DNA from: a virus
Reading direction: 5' to 3' (one strand)
Length of the DNA stretch: 64,000 bases
IMG/VR virus record: IMGVR_UViG_3300027708_000021
Positions 13,310 to 61,484 of this stretch are shown here, piece after piece; the first letter of the stretch is position 1; every line of letters starts with the position of its first letter. The position numbers and the translations under genes were made by a program. The notes beneath the pieces were generated by a model. It was not told the DNA's origin and ran no database searches. It saw only the letters and a list, made by a program, of their open reading frames with translations.

Positions 13310-14290
13310 ATGATTGATGTGATTTCTTTTCTTCCTAGTAAACGAAAACATACTAGCTCGGGCTGGATATCATTTAACGCACCTTGTTGTATTCATAGAG
13401 GCAATACTCAAGACAAACGACAGCGCGGCGGACTCAAACCTAACGCTGAAAACGGTTGGAGTTATCATTGTTTTAATTGTGGTTATACTGCTAGTTTTAT
13501 TTTAGGTCGTAGCTTATCATTCAAAGCTCGAACACTATTAAAGTGGTTGGGTGTAGATCAGCAGAGTATTGAACAAATTAATATCGAAAGTCTACGACAT
13601 CGAACTATGAATGGTTTGATAGAAAATCAAAAAACTAAGATTAAAGCAGTCGAATTTGAAGAGCGAGATTTGCCAGCTGATTTGGAACTTATAAACCTTG
13701 ACAATCCTGACCATTTCCCGTATATTGAATACTTAGAAGGTAGATGTATTGATTGTGTGAGCTATCCATATATGGTAAGTCCGCAAGCTGAGGGAAGATC
13801 AAGCAAACGCATTGTAATACCATTTACACACAAAGGTGTAATAGTAGGAAATACTTCTAGATTTATCGATGGCAGACAACCTAAATTTATATCAGACACA
13901 CAACAAGGTTATGTATTTGGAGTCGATTTACAGAAAGATAGTTGGGAACATCTAATCGTAGTAGAAGGAGTATTTGACGCACTTGCTATTAATGGCCTGG
14001 CGGTATTACATAATGATATTAACGATACACAAGTCCAGGTAATTAAAAGTTTAGGAAAGAATATAACAGTGGTGCCAGACCAGGACCAAGCTGGAATAGC
14101 ATTAGTAAATAAGGCAATAGAATTAGGATGGGGTGTTAGTATCCCCGAATGGCCTGGCGGTGTCAAAGACGTAAATGATGCTGTAATTCGTATGGGCAAG
14201 GTTGCAACTTTACTAACTATATTAAATGCCAGAGAAACTAACAAATACAAAATTGAAATAAAAAGGAAGCAACTTGTTAAAAGACTATAG
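13310..14290 (+). CDS. DNA primase (gp61-like)
   Basis: Zn ribbon (PCC...HCFNC), TOPRIM VVEGVFDAL, PDQDQAG, KDVND; sigma70 promoter 13275-13303. Confidence 0.9.
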   Translation: MIDVISFLPSKRKHTSSGWISFNAPCCIHRGNTQDKRQRGGLKPNAENGWSYHCFNCGYTASFILGRSLSFKARTLLKWLGVDQQSIEQINIESLRHRTMNGLIENQKTKIKAVEFEERDLPADLELINLDNPDHFPYIEYLEGRCIDCVSYPYMVSPQAEGRSSKRIVIPFTHKGVIVGNTSRFIDGRQPKFISDTQQGYVFGVDLQKDSWEHLIVVEGVFDALAINGLAVLHNDINDTQVQVIKSLGKNITVVPDQDQAGIALVNKAIELGWGVSIPEWPGGVKDVNDAVIRMGKVATLLTILNARETNKYKIEIKRKQLVKRL

Positions 14291-15677
14291 TATTGAAGTA
14301 CAAAAATTATTTTTAGAAATGATGCTCAGCGATGCTGAATCATTTGTTCGTGTTCAAAATATCTACAACCCAGAAAACTTTGATCGTAGTTTACGAACGA
14401 CCGCAGATTTTATTAAAACTCACTACGAAGAACACGGTTCACTTCCTGTATTAGCGCAGATTAATGCGGCGACAGGATCTAAATTAGAAGCCCTACCAGA
14501 TTTGCCAGATGGTAATTTAGATTGGTTCATGGAAGAGTTTGAAGGTTTTACTAAAAAAGAAGAACTAAGTAGAGCAATTCTCAAGTCATATGATATGCTA
14601 GACAAGGGAGAGTTTGCGCCAGTAGAAAAATTAATCAAAGATGCGGTACAGATTAGTTTGTTAAAAGACATGGGCACAGATTATTTTGCCGATCCCAGGG
14701 GTCGAAATGACAAGTATTTTAATAGTGGTGGGCAAGTAAGTACAGGCTGGCCAAGTTTAGATAGAATATTATATGGTGGATTCAGTCGCGGAGAACTTAA
14801 TATTTTTGCTGGGGGCTCGGGCTCGGGAAAATCTTTAGTTATGATGAATATTGCTATTAGCTGGTTGGAACAAGGACTAAGCGGAGCATATATAAGTTTA
14901 GAACTTAGTGAAGAACTAGTTGGATTGCGTACTGATGCTATGCTGTCCAGTATGTCAACTAAAGACATTCGTAAAGATTTAGAAACAGCTGAATTAAAAA
15001 TTAAAATGTTTGGCAAAAAAGCTGGACAATATCGAGTAAAATCATTGCCAGCACAAAGTAACATTAATGATGTGCGTTCATATTTAAAAGAAGTACAAGT
15101 ACAAACAGGAATTAAAGTTGATTTTATTATGGTTGATTATTTAGATTTATTAATGCCAGCTAGCGTTAAAGTTAACCCAAATGATCAGTTTATTAAAGAC
15201 AAGTATGTGGCGGAAGAATTGCGTAACTTAGCGCAAGAATTGGGGATATTATTGGTTACCGCATCGCAGTTAAATCGCGGAGCAGTTGAAGAGATTGAAT
15301 TCGATCATAGTCATATTGCTGGTGGTATTTCTAAGATTAATACCGCAGATAATGTATTTGGTATCTTTACAAGTCGTGCTATGAAAGAGCGTGGACGCTA
15401 TCAATTACAATGTATGAAAACTCGTACAAGTAACGGGACAGGGCAAAAGGTAGAATTAGACTATAATGTTGAAACCATGCGTATTACTGATTTACCTGAA
15501 GATGCTGCTCCTGTAAATTCATTCAAAAAATCTAACATTTACGACAGTATAAAAACACAAAGTAAGGTTAGTAGTGGTGAAACTATTGACGCTGGTACGG
15601 GTGAAATTGGAAAAATTACGGCAGAAGTACAAAGTAGCAAATTAAAGGCATTATTGGGGCAAATTAAACAGAATTAA
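14274..15677 (+). CDS. Replicative helicase (gp41/DnaB-like)
   Basis: GGSGSGKS, SLELSE, VDYLDL, TASQLNR, KTR motifs. Confidence 0.92.
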   Translation: MLKDYSIEVQKLFLEMMLSDAESFVRVQNIYNPENFDRSLRTTADFIKTHYEEHGSLPVLAQINAATGSKLEALPDLPDGNLDWFMEEFEGFTKKEELSRAILKSYDMLDKGEFAPVEKLIKDAVQISLLKDMGTDYFADPRGRNDKYFNSGGQVSTGWPSLDRILYGGFSRGELNIFAGGSGSGKSLVMMNIAISWLEQGLSGAYISLELSEELVGLRTDAMLSSMSTKDIRKDLETAELKIKMFGKKAGQYRVKSLPAQSNINDVRSYLKEVQVQTGIKVDFIMVDYLDLLMPASVKVNPNDQFIKDKYVAEELRNLAQELGILLVTASQLNRGAVEEIEFDHSHIAGGISKINTADNVFGIFTSRAMKERGRYQLQCMKTRTSNGTGQKVELDYNVETMRITDLPEDAAPVNSFKKSNIYDSIKTQSKVSSGETIDAGTGEIGKITAEVQSSKLKALLGQIKQN

Positions 15678-53472: not shown

Positions 53473-53511
53473 AAACAACAGGTTGACAGGTAATTCATTT
53501 AATCGTATAAT
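53464..53511 (+). promoter_or_regulatory. GTTGT-N6-ACAAC palindrome plus a sigma70 promoter
   Basis: Palindrome 53464-79; TTGACA-17-TATAAT. Confidence 0.75.
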
Positions 53512-53942: not shown

Positions 53943-54177
53943 CTTGTTTAAAGAATTAAAGGTAGCGGCGTTTATCGCTGGGTACGGACAACTGTACGAA
54001 GATATCGTTGGCCGTAACCTAGCCCATGTACCAATCAGTCAACTGGAAGAGACTAGACTGCAGATAAAGAGTCTAGGATATAGGACAAGGATCCGCTTTC
54101 GTGGCCCTAGGATTGGTACAGACAATCGTCATACCCTTAAACGGCACGCTAGGGCTTTTACTGTATATTTGAAGTAG
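53929..54177 (+). CDS. Hypothetical protein
   Basis: 82 aa; RIRFRGPR motif. Confidence 0.65.
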   Translation: MMVNNLFKELKVAAFIAGYGQLYEDIVGRNLAHVPISQLEETRLQIKSLGYRTRIRFRGPRIGTDNRHTLKRHARAFTVYLK

Positions 54178-54298
54178 ACCGCTCCCTAAAACATCCAAGT
54201 TTGGTTGGATGCCCATCGTGGTCACATGGGGTTACTATCCAAGACCCTAGACTTGGAACCAAGCACTAGGACACCAAGGCCCCGCAAGGGGCTTTGTT
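54178..54298 (+). ncRNA. Candidate structured RNA (three hairpins, one pseudoknot) ending in a terminator
   Basis: CATCCAA/TTGGATG; CCCAT/ATGGG; TCCAAG/CTTGGA with loop CCTAG pairing to CTAGG; AAGGCCCC-GCAA-GGGGCTTT. Confidence 0.45.
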
Positions 54299-54357
54299 GT
54301 AGTTGACAATAAATGCGTTTGATACTATACTACAGTTTTACAACTATAAAGGTTTAT

Positions 54358-54864
54358 ATGGAATACTCAGTTCTTGATATTAGACACTATAGTAATGATG
54401 GGTTGGTTAAATTGTGCAATGTCCGACGGGGAGCAAATAGTCGTTGGCTGTTTACAAGTATTAATGAAGAGCTAATGTACAGCACACATAGGTCCTGGGT
54501 ATATTTTATTGTAGTAGCTGATAAGATATACAAGATTGGCGAAACAGGCAATCCCTTGGGTATTTGTAAAACTCACAGTGATCAACCCATTGGCGGTACT
54601 CGTTGTCGCATGGGAAGACTGGCCAATCATCAAGGATTCCCGGACACTGATGTCTCTATCAGATTGGCACTCACTGAAGCAGTTGATAATAATCAAGTGA
54701 GTATCTGGGCACGAAAATGTGATATAGTAATGAAACAAATACAAATAGGTAATGGTACTCATAAATTACAAACTGCATTTCACAAAGATTTGGAAATGAA
54801 GTACCTAGATTATATCTACGATTATACCGGACAATACCCTGAATTAAACAAAGGTCGTAAATGA
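54358..54864 (+). CDS. GIY-YIG-like nuclease-fold protein
   Basis: WVYFI...YKIGET...R...H...LE..Y...PELN; promoter 54303-54331. Confidence 0.55.
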   Translation: MEYSVLDIRHYSNDGLVKLCNVRRGANSRWLFTSINEELMYSTHRSWVYFIVVADKIYKIGETGNPLGICKTHSDQPIGGTRCRMGRLANHQGFPDTDVSIRLALTEAVDNNQVSIWARKCDIVMKQIQIGNGTHKLQTAFHKDLEMKYLDYIYDYTGQYPELNKGRK

Positions 54865-54892
54865 CCCCGGGGCCCAATTTTACTAGAGAAAC

Positions 54893-54906
54893 CAGCGCGA
54901 AGCGCA
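54893..54906 (+). repeat. 14-bp inverted repeat, left copy (GCGC-GAA-GCGC mini-hairpin)
   Basis: CAGCGCGAAGCGCA; exact reverse complement at 59549-59562. Confidence 0.8.
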
Positions 54907-54925
54907 GCACGTTAGAAAGTCTACA

Positions 54926-56084
54926 ATGATAGAAGATAGTGATTCACCAGAAGTATTACAAGGTCGTACTAGGAGAATAGTCTTGGCCGTAATGATCATG
55001 ACTGTACCTGCTATATTAGTCTACATCGTGTACAAGCTGTTAGACACAGTTATCACCAACATAGTGAGAGTATTGATATAATGAAAGATGATTGGAAATT
55101 TCAAGCAGGATTAACAGACAGTGATGGCAATAAGAAAACTCCCGAAGAACCCATAGGCGCCGTCTGGGATACTGTGACCAACATATGGATGTTTGTAGTA
55201 GCAGGCTTCCTATTTTACCTAGTGGGCGCAGTGATATGGATGATGATTCAAGGTGTATATAACATACTAACAGGCCAATAATCATGAAAACATACGAACA
55301 CCTAGACAGTCTCAATCAACCCATAGACATTGGACAACCCATAGCATTTACTAGCAGCTATCTCAAAGGTGTTAAAGTAGGCATAGTTCGCCAGCTGACT
55401 AAGCAAAGAGTACGAATCAACTTCAAGTACACATATCGCGACCGGCTGGGTGAAGAGCACCCTGCTAGCTATGACACCTTAATAGATCCCCAGCGTACCG
55501 TACAGTTGGGTGAACAATTAAGCCCTACACTGACCATGTTCCTGCTTAAAAATGGTCTCTAGCAAACTAGTCAAACTGGCAGTGGAGCAGTGGTTTGGTG
55601 ATGCTTGGGTATGGCATGTACTCCGTGGGGGACAGAACTGGGGTATAATCCCTGGAGTGAATGAATACATGGATATTACCATTGACAACAAAGAAATAAG
55701 GATATATCCCATAAAGACTAACCGTGAACTGGCTATTAGACTAGCTGTATGGGATTATACCACACTTGACAGAGATGATATGTATGTACGCACTGAAGAA
55801 GACATACAGATGATACCCATACTGTTGGCGAAGTTCTTCGGATGACTCGACTGACTATACCACAAACTACTAATAGAGTAGACCTAGCTGAATACTGTAG
55901 TCGTACAATCAGTAGGCGTATGTATTGGCTGCACAATCAAGTTGGGGGCGAAGGCTGGCGTATATACAGTGAACTACGACCCATCAACCCTGTGGACACT
56001 TGGAAACGACAGATGACTACATGGTATTTAGATGTAGACTGCGAGCAACAGGCCTTGCTAATAAGACTACGCTACGGTGCCTAA
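54926..56084 (+). CDS. Run of five small early ORFs (54926-55081, 55081-55281, 55284-55562, 55552-55845, 55842-56084), two with TM helices
   Basis: Tightly packed, overlapping start/stop codons. Confidence 0.6.
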
Positions 56085-56099
56085 TATAAGCCACTGTAG

Positions 56100-56598
56100 T
56101 CCCTCCGGTCTATATGCATAGAGATAAAAAAAATTTTTGTGCAAATTTTTTGAAACCCTGATTTTAAAGGCACCGAAAGTTCTAGACCTGGGGGGTATGG
56201 TGGGTAATATAATAGGCGATTTTGACGCGGTTTTATCTGACGCCTTTTCCCAGTTTAGTATTTGTATTGTAGCTTAATAGACCTACCGGGGGTACCCGAA
56301 GTTTCTAGACCCCCCACCCCTTACCATACTATAGCCTGACAGGACCTGGAGCTATATAGGAGCTTGAATAGGGCCCTAAATTAGGGGCTGTTTTAGGGGC
56401 TGTTTTTACCCCCTGCACACCGTTGTATGTACGCTACAGACCCAGCCTAGACCGGTTGACATAAGGGCTGAAAGATGTTATAATAAGAGTAGGCGTGGCG
56501 TATTGGCCGCCTAGGCAGATACCATTATGTATCCTTTTGGTTGACATATAATGCCTTTGAGCTTATACTATGTATATAGTAAACAATAAGGAGCACAA
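56100..56598. other. About 500-bp non-coding region with A-tracts, direct/inverted repeats and two tandem sigma70 promoters
   Basis: GGCACCGAAAGTTCTAGACC / GGTACCCGAAGTTTCTAGACC; TTAGGGGCTGTTTT x2; TTGACA-17-TATAAT 56456, TTGACA-17-TATACT 56541. Confidence 0.65.
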
Positions 56599-57329
56599 AT
56601 GATTTCTATTAACTTATCCATTAAGGAAGCCCGTATGTTACATCAGGCTCTAGGGCAAGAGATTAGCAAGGGTTCTAGTACATTCTTAACAGGCCGTGAC
56701 ATACTAAGCCTTAGCCGCATACAAGGTGACTTGGCCTTACAGGTTGCTTGTGTTGAAGCCACTAACAACATGGGAGTAAAATAATGGATGTCAACGCAGA
56801 GATCGTACGCATGAAACGCCAAGGGTATGACATTGTAGACATCTACATCTATGTCAAAGACTATGTCAGTCCAGAAGCATTCGCACACTTATATGAGGCA
56901 CTATAATATGACCCCACAAGTAACCGCATTACCAGGCATGACTCCCTTGGGTTTACCTGAAGATCCACAAGAGCGTTTCATCGCTTATACCCTAGAGTTC
57001 TACGGTGTCAACGGCATATACAAGTATGACTTTACCCGTGAGGAAGTCATCAAGGCCATTGAAATGTACAAAGACTTAGAGGACACACAGTTCCTAGGCG
57101 ATACTGCCGACCGTGAGTTTGTCCGTGATATAGTATTCCACAATAGGGGTGAATAATGAAACTAGCTACTGCCATTAAACAGATCCAAAAAGAAGCGGCA
57201 TTCATAGGCTGGACCGCCCCGGACATTGTTAGAGATATCGCTAAACATGGCCGCATGTTATACAGTGAGCGTACCATGCAAGCATATCGTGTGATCCAGG
57301 ACAAGTTCCCTTTAAAGGAGCAGGTATGA
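56599..57329 (+). CDS. Run of small early ORFs (56599-56784, 56784-56906, 56908-57156, 57156-57329)
   Basis: RBSs and overlapping stop/start codons after promoter 56541. Confidence 0.6.
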
Positions 57330-57600
57330 CCAGCTGGTTAACCATGGCCGCTGTCCTGGGCATCACAGCGGGCGCAGCAGTTTATCACATGACCCAGCAT
57401 GGAACTACTGAGTATAAACCCACAATGACCCGGGCTGTTACTATCACAGGCAAAGGTCAATTCAAATGCCAGACAGGGTGCTAACATGACAGAAATAAAC
57501 CTCGCTTATTACTACCTACAAGACAGCCTAGTCACCATCATACTGTTTGGTATATTTGGCATGCTGGCCATGATATTAATAGCCCTAGCTTGGTTCATCC

Positions 57601-58554
57601 ATGAATAAGTTCCTTGTAATACTAGCCCTAGTCTGGTCCACGTCAGCGGCTGCATTAACCCTCGACGAGGTCCCGGACTTTCAACCCGCAACTATCGCCA
57701 CCGCCCCGCCTGCTCAGTTATTAGGCGATGTACAGATCGAATGGTACACTACCAATAGAAACCTGGCGGATTACCTGCCCATCGTGACTACATTTGACGG
57801 TCGGGGCCGGTTACTAGCCTCATGGACTCCGCACAAAGACGGGGTGAAAAACCGCCCCACATTCATATTCCTACACGGCGGACATGGAGTAGGTGCCATG
57901 GATATCGCTAGTGCACAGTGGGCCCGCAAAGAACTCGGTGCCAATGTATTAGTATTAGACAGCTACTGGAGTAGGGGCAAGCTGGAAAATTGGAAGACAT
58001 GGAATGAATACGGTGCCAACATGCGAGCCCTAGATGCTATCGCAGCCGGTCGATTCGTCATCAGTCAAGGTGTAGATCCCGGTAGTATATACCTACAGGG
58101 CAACAGCCAAGGTGGATGGACTGTACTACGCACTATGACTAGTACACCCTTTCTTAATCAATATAATACTATGTTTCGGGCTGGTATAGCCCTATATCCA
58201 AATTGTGTTACTGGTTACTGGACTAGTTATAAACCACCATTAGGACCTTACAATGGACCAGTGGCTGTATTCACTGCTGGTCGGGACACAGCTACACCTA
58301 TACATGAATGCGACCGGGATATATTCACTCAAGCTACATTATGGAAACATTATCCCACGGCTACCCATGCGTTTGATGCTGTATTCAAAGGTATGTTAAA
58401 AGACCCACCCAGAAATGGACATGGTGAGTGTTCACAGGCACTTAATATATATAATAGATTTGCTATATGCAGAGATAATGAAGTTACAGATGACATGCGT
58501 AATCGGGTCAAAGACTTGGTTAGACAGCTAACTCCTTATAGCTCTATACAATAA
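57601..58554 (+). CDS. Exported alpha/beta hydrolase (dienelactone-hydrolase-like)
   Basis: Signal peptide; HGGHG, GNSQGG nucleophile, GRD, THAFD. Confidence 0.85.
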   Translation: MNKFLVILALVWSTSAAALTLDEVPDFQPATIATAPPAQLLGDVQIEWYTTNRNLADYLPIVTTFDGRGRLLASWTPHKDGVKNRPTFIFLHGGHGVGAMDIASAQWARKELGANVLVLDSYWSRGKLENWKTWNEYGANMRALDAIAAGRFVISQGVDPGSIYLQGNSQGGWTVLRTMTSTPFLNQYNTMFRAGIALYPNCVTGYWTSYKPPLGPYNGPVAVFTAGRDTATPIHECDRDIFTQATLWKHYPTATHAFDAVFKGMLKDPPRNGHGECSQALNIYNRFAICRDNEVTDDMRNRVKDLVRQLTPYSSIQ

Positions 58555-59046
58555 CTTATAAGTAGAACCCCTGCAGTGCAAGGTCGGCGCCCTGATATCA
58601 CCGGGCGGAAAGGGTAGTCTAGGGTGGATATACCCAGCTATACAAGGGTATACAAGGGTATACAAGGGTATACGACAGTATATAAGGATACTATATACGG
58701 AAGACGAGACGGTGATACAAGGTGATAACGGGCGATGTATAGTCCATATTTCAACCATCTCACCCCGAGGACTGAAGGTTTTGACACTTTCTTCTCACCG
58801 CACTCCGAACCGAAAAGATTCAATCTTTTCTCTAATAACTAACTCACTATACATATACTTTTCTTTATTATTTCGAATAATATCCAACATTTTCCTACCT
58901 TTTCTTACTTTTCCTTACATATCCGTGATTTAATCGACTTTATTATATCTCCGGGCGAGAATAGTAGACTACCGACCCCAAAATGATTGAATCTTTTTGA
59001 ATAATATGTTATAATAACTAGTACAACTAACTCAAAAGGACTCATC
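58555..59046. other. Candidate replication origin
   Basis: Non-coding; phased repeats, paired palindromes AAAAGATTCAATCTTTT / GATTGAATCTTTT, pyrimidine/AT-rich tract, apparent GC-skew switch. Confidence 0.5.
58629..58740. repeat. 10-bp-period tandem repeats (iteron-like)
   Basis: TATACAAGGG x3 exact (58639-68) plus three degenerate flanking units; GGTGATA-type x3 at 58711-40. Confidence 0.8.
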
Positions 59047-59213
59047 GTGGACATAGCTAGAGCCATAGCCATACAGTTCGATATACTAAATGCTGTTTAC
59101 TTGCTCATAGGCGTCATTGTCATCGGCGCCATTGTTATCGTTGGTAGCGTGTATCTTTATGGGGAATATCAAGAGTACAAGCGCGAGCATATTAATACTA
59201 AAAAGGATTGGCT

Positions 59214-59531
59214 ATGACTAAGACTCGAGTCAGCGTCGCTCGTAGACTCTACGCTAGCCATGTTAACTATGGTGACGATGCGTTATATCGTGATGAACTG
59301 GCACGTATACTAGGTGAAATTGTCCATGTAGCTGGGCCTATTCTTCACGGGGCTGACTATCCTGTATTTGCTCAAGGAGCTCACTGGCGTTTTATGTTAG
59401 GTGTACCCCGAGATGTACAAGAGCATTACATAGAGTTTGATCAGGAGGCAGATGCTGTATTTTATATGTTGAAATATGGTGGTGAGATCGTTCCGGAGTT
59501 AGAGGAAGTAGAAATGGCATGGGCGAAATAG
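59214..59531 (+). CDS. Small protein, FxF...DA..F.LKY family
   Basis: YIEFDQEADAVFYMLKYG. Confidence 0.65.
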   Translation: MTKTRVSVARRLYASHVNYGDDALYRDELARILGEIVHVAGPILHGADYPVFAQGAHWRFMLGVPRDVQEHYIEFDQEADAVFYMLKYGGEIVPELEEVEMAWAK

Positions 59532-59548
59532 TGTTCGGGTTTTGCACG

Positions 59549-59562
59549 TGCGCTTCGCGCTG
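59549..59562 (-). repeat. 14-bp inverted repeat, right copy
   Basis: TGCGCTTCGCGCTG. Confidence 0.8.
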
Positions 59563-59592
59563 TTCTCGGGTTCTATAAGGCCACGCCGGGTT

Positions 59593-59820
59593 ATGTCAAA
59601 TACCGTTGTCGTCCCTGTGAATACTGCTACAGAAGCATATGATATAGTCATGGAGTTAAAAGGGCTAGGATTAGCGGCTAATAAGGATTTTACATGGAGT
59701 TTTCGGCCCAGGCAGGAGGATTACTTTAGCTATGAGGAAATAGAAACTGAGCCTCCTTCAGTTACTTTTACATTCGTTAACGAGAGTATGGCCAGCTTCG
59801 TAAGGTTAAAATTTCAATGA
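59593..59820 (+). CDS. Small protein, same family
   Basis: VTFTFVNESMASFVRLKFQ. Confidence 0.65.
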   Translation: MSNTVVVPVNTATEAYDIVMELKGLGLAANKDFTWSFRPRQEDYFSYEEIETEPPSVTFTFVNESMASFVRLKFQ

Positions 59821-60038
59821 TTAGAGTTAATGTATTATCGGACCCTTTTAATCGTGCTTATTGGGCGGCTAAACGGGAATTACCAGTAGAACCGTTAGAA
59901 TTACCCCGTCAATATGGTGGTCGTTGGCGTGAAAAGTTCCGGTGTAGGGTTGAGCAGGGTAACTGGTTGACTAATCAAGTTTACTATGTGTTTGATAGGG
60001 ATGAGGATTACACTTGGTTTATGTTAAAATACAGTTAA
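59817..60038 (+). CDS. Small protein, same family
   Basis: YYVFDRDEDYTWFMLKYS. Confidence 0.7.
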   Translation: MIRVNVLSDPFNRAYWAAKRELPVEPLELPRQYGGRWREKFRCRVEQGNWLTNQVYYVFDRDEDYTWFMLKYS

Positions 60039-60227
60039 ATGAACGAAATAGAGAAAAGATTCGTAGCTAGTGTACGTGCTCCTGAGGTGAAGCCGTATCA
60101 AGGATGGTCGCCTTGTATCGTATGGTGCGACAATCATTTAAAGGATGGCTGGTGGTTTATTGGGGATGGAGTATTTGAATTTGTCCGTGAGCAGGATTAT
60201 TTAATGTTTATGTTGCGTTGGAATTAA
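60039..60227 (+). CDS. Small protein, same family
   Basis: WC...W...VFEFVREQDYLMFMLRWN. Confidence 0.7.
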   Translation: MNEIEKRFVASVRAPEVKPYQGWSPCIVWCDNHLKDGWWFIGDGVFEFVREQDYLMFMLRWN

Positions 60228-61484
60228 ATGACAACAGTTATATTTAAATTCGAGGATTTTATTCGATTATTTACGTTTAATCGGGGAATTTCTTACGAGG
60301 ATTTTTCGAATAAATTAAGTATTTTAAATATATCTGATCGTTCAGGTGAATTTGTTGTTCGTAGTGATATAAATACGTTTATTAGTCGTGTGGCCCGTAG
60401 GGACGATAGGGCAGAAAGATTAGAATTATATAAAAGGAATTTATATCGTATGCTGGTATTAGAGCCCGAAGTGGCATTAAAGACGTGGTTTAAAAGATAT
60501 GGGGAATTACCCCACGAATTAAATTATTATTTTGATATTCCCACTACATCAATTAGAACAGCGGATACATTCCAGGGCATAAAGAATTCTAAATATGGGC
60601 GTGTATGTAAGAATATTAATTTCGATAAGTTTTATAATACACGGAAATTATACGCAAATGACAGCGAATATACCTTTGGATTATTACGTGCCATGTTCGA
60701 GGATTTTAAAATAAGAAATAGTCTAGCAGGGCCAGCGTTCTTTGATCATATATGTCAATTAGATGGCGATTATAATCAATTCTGGACTGACTTTATGATT
60801 GGAGCTAACCGTGCTAGTATCTTTAATCCAGCGACTTATCGTGGAATATTAGATGAATTATTTGAAGGAGATACTATATTTGCTCCAGTAATGGGTTGGA
60901 ATGCTTATCAGTTTGGCTTTTATAGCAGCACTAAATTTAAACATTTTATTAGTACAGATGTAATTCCTGATGTAGTTGACAATGGTCGTTTATTACACGA
61001 ATCATATCAAGCATATAGGGATCAAAGTATATTTGAATTACAGGATAAAACAATTGATTTATATTGCTGTCCTAGTGAGGAATTACAGAAAAGATTTAAT
61101 TTTGTAGACAAGTATCGAGACAAGGTGGATGCTGTATTATTCAGCCCGCCCTATTATGATTTAGAAATATACGACAGTCCCAATCAAAGTTTAACTAATT
61201 ATCCCGATTATGCGGATTGGTTACGGGGTTATTGGGAAGAAACAATCGAAATATGTGAGCAAGTATTAAAAAAGAATGGCCGTTTGGGATTTATTATTTC
61301 GAATTATCGCAATAAAGATAAAAAAGATGTTACAATTAGTGAAGATATGATGAAAATTGTTAGCGATCATTTAACTAATATTGGCAGATATAAGGTACAA
61401 TGGAGTGCTATAAGCACAGGTCGTCAAGCGGCTAAAATGCGGGGCGGTAATTTTGAAGATTTATGGTTATTTGAGAAAAAATGA
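60228..61484 (+). CDS. Amino (N4C/N6A) DNA methyltransferase-like protein
   Basis: FAPVMGW (variant motif I) and FSPPYYDLEIY (motif IV). Confidence 0.75.
   Translation: MTTVIFKFEDFIRLFTFNRGISYEDFSNKLSILNISDRSGEFVVRSDINTFISRVARRDDRAERLELYKRNLYRMLVLEPEVALKTWFKRYGELPHELNYYFDIPTTSIRTADTFQGIKNSKYGRVCKNINFDKFYNTRKLYANDSEYTFGLLRAMFEDFKIRNSLAGPAFFDHICQLDGDYNQFWTDFMIGANRASIFNPATYRGILDELFEGDTIFAPVMGWNAYQFGFYSSTKFKHFISTDVIPDVVDNGRLLHESYQAYRDQSIFELQDKTIDLYCCPSEELQKRFNFVDKYRDKVDAVLFSPPYYDLEIYDSPNQSLTNYPDYADWLRGYWEETIEICEQVLKKNGRLGFIISNYRNKDKKDVTISEDMMKIVSDHLTNIGRYKVQWSAISTGRQAAKMRGGNFEDLWLFEKK

Follow-up and report, generated by a model that had tools for sequence, protein, structure and literature searches.

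The stretch of viral DNA examined here (IMG/VR virus record IMGVR_UViG_3300027708_000021; 64,000 nucleotides, hereafter the window) contains a short, hairpin-centered element in 2 copies of opposite orientation, located on either side of 2 long noncoding blocks. Nearly all of the genes in the window are placed on the plus strand, and they encode UvsX/RecA-like and UvsW-like proteins, a Toprim primase, a DnaB-like helicase, a ligase, a ribonucleotide reductase, ClpX, and 2 ClpP proteins. The T4-like cyanophages are distant protein relatives of the window, and a related contig of 152 kb was estimated by CheckV to be only 43% complete, from which we concluded that the window belongs to a giant T4-like phage. 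The 2 copies of the element, here called A1 and B, and the sequences enclosed by them are located as follows:

54871 to 54919, plus strand: element copy A1, GGCCC-AATTTTAC-TAGAGAA-AC-[CAGCGCGAAGCGCA]-GCACGTTAGAAAG, which ends 6 nucleotides (nt) before the ATG of a gene for a protein of 51 amino acids (aa)
54895 to 54905, plus strand: mini-hairpin GCGC-GAA-GCGC with d(GCGAAGC), the sole structure predicted in DNA and RNA folds of the element
56085 to 56598: noncoding block 1, in which consensus promoters (56456 to 56484 and 56541 to 56569) occur along with A/T tracts and conserved G/C repeats
58555 to 59046: noncoding block 2, with 3 copies of ATACAAGGGT at 10-bp spacing (58640 to 58672) and a promoter, TTGAAT-17-TATAAT, at 58987 to 59015
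59536 to 59582, minus strand: element copy B, which reads GGCCTTATAGAACCCGAGAA-[CAGCGCGAAGCGCA]-CGTGCAAAACCCG on the minus strand
59550 to 59560, minus strand: mini-hairpin GCGC-GAA-GCGC, which reads GCGCTTCGCGC on the plus strand

A first-pass annotation, made from the sequence alone, had pointed to a very GC-rich 14-mer at 54893 with an exact reverse complement about 4.7 kb away at 59549, both preceded by GAGAA and together enclosing the 2 long noncoding blocks. All of this was confirmed. The 14-mer CAGCGCGAAGCGCA is located at 54893 to 54906 on the plus strand and its exact reverse complement at 59549 to 59562 on the minus strand, 4.66 kb apart and with both blocks in between, and no further copy with up to 1 mismatch was found in the window. 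There were 22 exact inverted pairs of 14-mers in the window, of which this pair alone was GC-rich, with G or C at 10 of the 14 positions. The exact inverted match is by itself weak evidence; the signal comes from the relatives described below.

The 11-nt hairpin GCGCGAAGCGC had 2 matches in the window at up to 1 mismatch, compared to 0.25 expected, and the pair accounted for all GCGC-N3-GCGC hairpins in the 64 kb and for 2 of the 4 triloop hairpins with a 4-bp stem composed solely of G and C. Both copies, at 54895 on the plus strand and at 59550 on the minus strand, contain a GAA loop closed by a C-G pair and flanked by further G-C pairs, as in the d(GCGAAGC)-type hairpin, which is an unusually stable form of DNA (PMC13037366). 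Elsewhere, the bare 7-mer GCGAAGC occurred at chance frequency (6 matches vs. 3.75 expected) and followed the coding strand, and it is therefore the extended element alone that is special.

The similarity between the 2 copies reaches well beyond the GAGAA motif. The full unit is about 45 nt long, more than the first-pass annotation had described, with a GC box, an A-rich arm, the mini-hairpin, and CACGT in the order GGCC-TATwGAAC-AGAGAA-(0-2 nt)-14-mer-(0-1 nt)-CACGT, where the spacing between the 5′ arm and the hairpin differs by 0 to 2 nt between copies. The plus and minus copies share about 36 to 38 nt, which include about 22 nt on the 5′ side of the hairpin and CACGT on the 3′ side. Beyond this, the 3′ flanks are type-specific and each of them is conserved, being GCACGTTAGAAAG in the A-type copies and CGTGCAAAACCCG in B. 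The flanks of the element retain ACGT and TGCA, the 2 most avoided tetramers in the window. Both of these palindromic tetramers were about 3-fold under-represented in the window, with 68 sites for TGCA and 44 for ACGT (observed/expected ratios of 0.31 and 0.35), which suggests avoidance of restriction enzymes.

A search of phage-collection DNA in both near and distant modes yielded no relative of the window. A gapped-pattern search identified 2 IMG/VR contigs, G001 (151,910 nt) and G002 (98,528 nt), which were 68% to 90% identical to the window, along with 4 short metagenome contigs. For a sample that was independent of the motif, we took the contigs of 32 homologs (60% to 100% identity) of the 92-aa protein encoded at 55284 to 55562. 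All loci were scanned for the 14-mer with up to 2 mismatches, and they represented about 10 related lineages, referred to below by L numbers. Protein-anchored scans with the neighboring 183-aa and 107-aa proteins yielded no relatives. More distant phages were found by means of their methyltransferase (54% to 64% identity); these lacked the whole early region and were of no use for studying positional conservation.

Among the 17 distinct copies that about 10 lineages contributed, the 14-mer was unchanged except in L155, where its first base, which is not part of the stem, is changed from C to A. The flanking genes of these lineages were only 50% to 88% identical. For copy B, the mean pairwise identity in 5 lineages was 1.0 over the core, which was the maximum within 300 nt on either side, compared to 0.5 to 0.87 in the flanking genes. 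For A1, the 38 nt from ACTAGAGAA to TTAGAAAG varied at a single A/C site among 9 lineages, whereas both outer sides diverged freely. Each copy is invariant in its place while its neighbors have diverged by 12% to 50%, which indicates selection for function. Judged from these sequence comparisons, the element pair clearly appears to have some function; which one is unproven.

Nor is the motif scattered. We counted 2 copies in each of the window, the 152-kb contig G001, and the 99-kb contig G002, with no further copy in the latter two, and the strand polarity around the region was kept. The close relatives carried the motif in the same position and orientation, as the first-pass annotation had implied for a genuine signal.

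Across the relatives, the element occupied 3 sites: A1 and A2, both in plus orientation and the latter present in some relatives only, and B in minus orientation. The A1 copy precedes the gene for the 92-aa protein, although in the window and in L146 an inserted gene for a 51-aa protein intervenes, and its spacing TAGAAAG-N6-7-ATG is constant. The A2 copy was identified in G001, L143/144, and L155, where it marks the left edge of block 1 and comes 17 nt after the stop codon of a minus-strand gene for a fatty-acid hydroxylase. The B copy was always located after a gene for a protein of 105 to 107 aa. All 5 lineages that were covered on both sides kept at least 1 plus copy to the left and a minus copy to the right of the noncoding blocks:

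Window: A1 and B, 4.66 kb apart
G002: A1 and B, 5.25 kb apart
L143/144: A2 and B, 3.83 kb apart
L146: A1 and B, 5.5 kb apart
L148: A1 and B, 4.77 kb apart

Two lineages in which the A1 hairpin was deleted, L143 and L155, retained the ribosome-binding stretch and carried A2. The orientation tracked position and not local transcription, in that A1 is part of a plus-strand unit and A2 of a minus-strand operon while both copies are in plus orientation. The enclosed segment had one and the same orientation in every contig.

It was also noted that the coding status of A1 changes between lineages. The copy was part of the 5′ untranslated region in L016 and L019; in both of them, no gene separates the A1 core from a perfect TTGACA-17-TATAAT promoter 34 nt upstream. 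In G001 it encoded the C-terminal part of an HNH endonuclease, and L017 and L143 read it in a different frame, as the tail of a small membrane protein. In the window, the A1 14-mer starts 28 nt past the stop codon of the open reading frame (ORF) at 54313 to 54864 and ends 19 nt before the ATG at 54926, and the B 14-mer is located 18 nt past the stop codon of the ORF at 59208 to 59531 and is followed after 30 nt by the ATG at 59593. The copies had been described as intergenic, and this holds for both of them in the window but not for A1 in those relatives where ORFs read through it. Even in the window, A1 is crossed by a coupled mini-ORF of 22 codons. This mini-ORF is part of a chain of ATGA overlaps at 54862 to 54929, in which the stop codon of the 183-aa ORF overlaps with the start of the mini-ORF and the stop of the mini-ORF with the ATG of the 51-aa gene. 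The same mini-ORF was present with an ATG of its own in L146, whereas L016 and L019 contained no start codon for it. Peptide coding by the element was accordingly rejected, as the frames differ or the start codon is missing among lineages. Since A1 is read in different frames or not translated at all, neither a peptide nor a sense-strand RNA fold explains its invariance. The orientation by position, together with the changing coding status of A1, points to a signal with strand polarity that is linked to something leaving the center.

The enclosed blocks were themselves conserved in part. Block 1 contained long stretches that were almost invariant across 7 lineages. One of these, about 60 nt at 56261 to 56321 (TTTGTATTGTAGCTTAATAGACCTACCGGGGGTACCCGAAGTTTCTAGACCCCCCACCCC), was nearly invariant in 6 lineages and includes a GGGGGT...ACCCCC stem; it is a candidate for a small RNA or a protein site, with no match in Rfam. 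The sequence GACGCGGTTTTATCTGACGCCTTTTCC and an A8T5 tract, both upstream of this stretch, were also conserved. In block 2, the 31-mer CCCCGAGGACTGAAGGTTTTGACACTTTCTT (58763 to 58793) and several T/C-rich stretches were invariant in all 5 lineages. The 152-kb contig G001 ends in block 2 just past the 10-bp repeats, at about position 58700 of the window; this could be a true end or a break of the assembly at the repeats. Within the 53- to 59-kb region, sigma-70 promoters of consensus or near-consensus sequence were found at 53483, 54303, 56456, 56541, and 58987. The G+C content was 0.42 to 0.49 inside the hairpin pair and 0.31 to 0.45 in most of the window, which had a mean of 0.39.

As our leading though tentative reading, we propose that this clade of giant T4-like freshwater phages may start origin-dependent replication by means of hairpin-type initiation signals on single-stranded DNA, one on each displaced strand, read by a primase-helicase of the DnaG/gp61 type. 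The duplex would open from the central control region, where blocks 1 and 2 contribute A/T tracts and strong early promoters. A helicase that moves outward in the 5′-to-3′ direction would displace the plus strand on the left side and the minus strand on the right side. The Toprim primase and the DnaB-like helicase of the phage would then use the hairpin with its 5′ arm as a mark for loading or priming, and 1 outward leading strand would be started on each side. The putative reading enzymes are encoded by adjoining genes in the window:

13310 to 14290: Toprim primase
14274 to 15677: DnaB-like helicase

What we infer is that the element acts in single-stranded form, that the blocks serve as an origin, and which enzyme reads the element; the observations that we count in favor include the invariance of the element, its rarity (2 copies per 64 to 152 kb), its polarity by position, and the retention of ACGT and TGCA.

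By analogy, the element would be a hairpin-centered polar signal that is closest to the single-strand initiation (ssi) signals of the IncQ plasmid RSF1010. In oriV, the vegetative replication origin of RSF1010, ssiA and ssiB are 2 inverted repeats of 40 nt that occur once each on complementary strands and are read by the RepB′ primase, each of them consisting of a 5′ arm to which the primase binds, a hairpin with a GAA mini-hairpin, and a start site on the 3′ side of the hairpin (PMC8567376, PMC13037366). The phage elements are likewise 2 homologous sequences of about 40 nt on complementary strands (3 copies where A2 is present), and they contain a 5′ arm, a GAA-triloop mini-hairpin (CCGAAGG in ssi, GCGAAGC here), and a conserved 3′ flank, a likeness of layout that does not come from a sequence comparison. 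In both systems, the hairpin would be placed on the strand displaced by helicases that leave an opened center (PMC8567376, PMC13037366), and since the d(GCGAAGC)-type hairpin is on the displaced strands, which would be the leading-strand templates of forks moving away from the center, the arrangement would fit the logic of ssiA and ssiB. There are also differences. The ssi signals are located in a compact oriV beside iterons bound by RepC, whereas the phage copies are 3.8 to 5.5 kb apart around 2 blocks of unproven role. The ssi hairpin spans nt 7 to 27, whereas the stem is only 4 bp here. Finally, RepB′ is a primase of the archaeo-eukaryotic type, whereas the phage primase is of the Toprim (DnaG/gp61) type, and the element is therefore not a member of the RSF1010 family.

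The G4-type origins and G-sites (phages G4, St-1, and alpha3; plasmids R1/R100) also combine a DnaG-type primase with stable mini-hairpins of the GCGAAAGC/GCGTTAGC type on strands coated with single-strand binding protein (PMC13037366). However, these signals are about 100 to 140 nt long, contain several longer hairpins, and serve either a single-stranded genome or one flank of a plasmid origin, whereas the phage element consists of one 4-bp hairpin and a linear arm in a large double-stranded genome. The promoters of the N4 virion RNA polymerase are also recognized as one-strand DNA hairpins with a 3-nt G-N-A loop (PMC13037366). In contrast to these promoters, the element occurs in only 2 to 3 copies, and transcription driven by B would run antisense into a conserved gene. 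No giant gene of the N4 virion RNA polymerase type was found in the 64-kb window, in which the largest ORF encodes 772 aa.

Several observations weigh against single-strand initiation. As far as is known, T4-type origins use R-loop transcripts to start their leading strands; GTT or GCT suffices for the T4 primase, and no hairpin priming signal is known in this group of phages. No RepB′-type primase was matched among the scanned ORFs of the window, which represents part of the genome and contains a primase of the Toprim type. The stem measures only 4 bp, and DNA and RNA folds of the element recovered nothing else (about −4.2 kcal/mol, z-scores of −0.9 to +0.4, no better than shuffled sequences). 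Although the pair flanks conserved blocks with A/T tracts and promoters, the copies are about 0.5 to 3.7 kb away from the candidate center, far wider than the spacing of ssiA and ssiB in oriV. The iteron-like ATACAAGGGT repeats varied from 3 copies in the window to 2 each in L143 and L146 and approximately none in L148 and G002; the repeat number is not conserved, and an origin role of the blocks is therefore unsupported. The second plus copy in some relatives loosens the strict bracket of one copy per side, the 3 sites go back to only about 3 independent insertion events, which gives the polarity pattern little statistical weight, and divergent transcription predicts the same polarity. The first-pass annotation had proposed symmetric single-strand signals for bidirectional replication. 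Of this, the strand logic stands, together with the lack of scatter and the conservation in relatives, whereas the blocks are at most a candidate origin and their iteron-like repeats vary. A transcription-based reading equals that of single-strand initiation in explanatory power, and we regard the latter as plausible and unproven.

The transcription-based reading, which we consider somewhat doubtful, holds that the element acts at the RNA level as a polar signal on divergent early transcripts, for example as an attenuator or terminator, a 3′ stabilizer, or a factor site of the nut/put type. The transcripts would come rightward from the promoter at 58987 and leftward from the minus-strand operon or from antisense transcription out of block 1, and the shared RNA would be ACGU-GCGCUUCGCGC-UG-UUCUCUGGUUCuAUAAGGCC, a small hairpin followed by a conserved arm rich in U and C. 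In the direction in which the locus is transcribed, A2 and B indeed each come 17 to 18 nt after the stop codon of the preceding gene, and both have this RNA polarity, the tail after the hairpin is rich in U in every copy (7 to 10 U in 14 to 16 nt), and signals for priming are far rarer than signals for transcription. The geometry resembles that of nutL and nutR (boxA-boxB) around the divergent promoters of phage lambda, as known in general, and of putL and putR of HK022, which are also inverted pairs of hairpin signals placed a few kb apart around an early control region, with one copy in a leader and the other just past a small early gene. Yet the lambda and HK022 signals act as RNA on the divergent pL and pR transcripts, whereas nearly all genes are on one strand here and leftward transcription through A1 is hypothetical; unlike in lambda, no boxA and no N-like factor were identified. 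The most widespread copy, A1, would fit only a leftward antisense RNA, and it is perfect even where no minus-strand gene is present, as in the window and L146. A good leftward promoter was not found.

Termination in particular agrees poorly with the data. The element resembles intrinsic terminators and the PeSL cassettes of T4-type phages in being an intergenic stem-loop beside early promoters in a hyperplastic region of small genes, with a U-rich tract on the proper strand. However, its stem is only 4 bp, its tail is interrupted, and about 45 nt are invariant including the loop, which terminators do not need. A scan for intrinsic terminators (a G+C-rich stem of at least 5 bp followed by at least 5 T in 8 nt) flagged none of these sites and neither copy in the window on either strand, whereas the real terminators of the phage have stems of 8 to 9 bp plus T runs, and its own canonical terminator-promoter cassette is a separate one, at 54275 to 54331. 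As the genes that lie downstream of A2 and B lack separate promoters, termination at these copies cannot be efficient. An extended RNA fold was not recovered either: RNAalifold detected no covariation in 7 A-type copies, and Rfam 15 gave no match with an E-value of up to 1 on either strand of 54000 to 60500. A longer RNA stem around B only (8 bp with a bulge and G-U pairs) was not supported, as one of the proposed pairs never forms and there are no two-sided changes. Pairing between the transcripts of A and B was discarded because L143 keeps A2 and B, which have one and the same RNA polarity. Readings of the element as a sigma-70, sigma-54, or T4 late promoter or as a MotA box misfit the sequence on inspection by eye.

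Rather unlikely, in our estimate, is a polar protein site on duplex DNA, such as a Tus/Ter-like barrier to forks or transcription, an insulator, or a loop anchor that would delimit the early control domain. Such a site would account for an asymmetric sequence of about 36 to 45 bp that is strongly conserved including the loop and has no structure beyond 4 bp, for an orientation set by the side of the center, as is generally known for Ter sites, and for the pair being kept in every fully covered lineage. On the other hand, the indels of 0 to 2 bp between arm and core and of 0 to 1 bp after the core would leave the sub-sites rotated on a duplex; a spacing change of 0 to 2 nt between arm and hairpin is probably easier to accommodate in single-strand recognition than in rigid duplex recognition. 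None of the small genes inside the bracket could be assigned to a DNA-binding protein, and the internal palindrome with its GNA center is left unexplained.

That the copies are relics, either of a mobile or duplicated cassette similar to miniature inverted-repeat transposable elements or repetitive extragenic palindromic (REP) sequences or of the terminal inverted repeats of an inserted 4- to 5-kb module, is improbable, in spite of the 3 insertion sites, the differing copy numbers between lineages, the 3′ flank shared even by A1 and A2, which indicates duplication, the higher G+C content inside the bracket, and the location in a hotspot of gene gain and loss with homing endonucleases beside A1, because each copy is invariant in place while its neighbors diverge, no target-site duplication was seen and no transposase or recombinase found, the enclosed segment has the same orientation in all contigs, and no multicopy family emerged in bacterial genomes, where the matches listed were scattered single ones attributable to chance. 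Specific versions were not supported either. For terminal inverted repeats of a transposon, there was no direct repeat outside the GGCC ends in the window and L143. For an invertible segment of the Hin/Gin/Cin type, inverted sites are present, but no recombinase family was represented among the ORFs of the bracket. For a host repeat of the REP type or a bacterial interspersed mosaic element, the core plus CACGT occurred in bacterial contigs, among the matches listed, only singly and in unrelated G+C-rich taxa.

The genes next to the 2 copies differ considerably between lineages. In the window, the neighborhood is organized as follows:

54275 to 54331, plus strand: terminator hairpin (54275 to 54296) followed by an early promoter, TTGACA-17-TATACT (54303 to 54331), a canonical arrangement
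54313 to 54864, plus strand: 183-aa ORF between the early promoter and A1
54926 to 55562, plus strand: genes 3′ of A1 for proteins of 51 aa, 66 aa, and 92 aa, the last one DUF7205-like (55284 to 55562) and located directly after A1 in most relatives
59208 to 59531, plus strand: gene for the 107-aa protein, with its stop codon 18 nt before B

The 183-aa ORF possibly encodes a GIY-YIG-like homing endonuclease, to judge from weak evidence consisting of a match to a PHROG endonuclease (E = 1.3e-4) and a VYF...YKIG motif recognized by eye; it had no match in Pfam. The slot between the promoter and A1 appeared to be a hotspot for genes of the homing-endonuclease type (54313 to 54864 in the window, 5498 to 6004 in L022, 5451 to 5984 in L021, and 7406 to 7861 in L143). 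It contained HNH genes (Pfam HNH) in G001, G002, and L143/144 and was empty in L016 and L019. The HNH proteins of G001 and G002 were 42% identical to each other and unrelated to the 183-aa ORF of the window, and the reading frames of both of them cross A1. Co-conversion by the neighboring endonucleases was rejected as the cause of the invariance of the element, since the identity collapses just outside of it and since B and A2 have no endonuclease neighbor.

Between a gene for an 80-aa protein and block 1, the relatives contained a minus-strand cassette with genes for the fatty-acid hydroxylase, a cupin similar to Asp/Arg beta-hydroxylases, and a protein of about 270 aa (8781 to 10961 in L143, 6796 to 8959 in L022, 6589 to 8102 in L021, 1508 to 3573 in L155, and 7687 to 8151 in L148); the window lacks the cassette. 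A 317-aa protein encoded at 57601 to 58554 in the window has an N-terminus that resembles a signal peptide and a GNSQGG (GxSxG-like) motif, with no match in Pfam. At the corresponding place after a gene for a 57-aa protein, L146 (5240 to 6148) and L147 (8678 to 9796) contained a gene of the beta-lactamase family (PF00144), and the site looks like a variable slot for secreted hydrolases.

How the start of replication is chosen and how the second, retrograde fork is started are poorly known in large T4-like phages other than T4. If single-strand initiation is the correct reading, the priming logic of RSF1010 and G4 would operate in a large double-stranded phage, in a setting for which R-loop priming is the only kind known. 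Genetics is unavailable for uncultured giant phages, but a short, invariant, and polar signal can be synthesized and tested with 2 recombinant proteins. The element is also a constrained sequence beside which at least 2 kinds of homing-endonuclease-type genes have settled. Even if it should act as a transcript signal or as a polar protein signal, it would mark the boundaries of the early control domain in this clade of phages.

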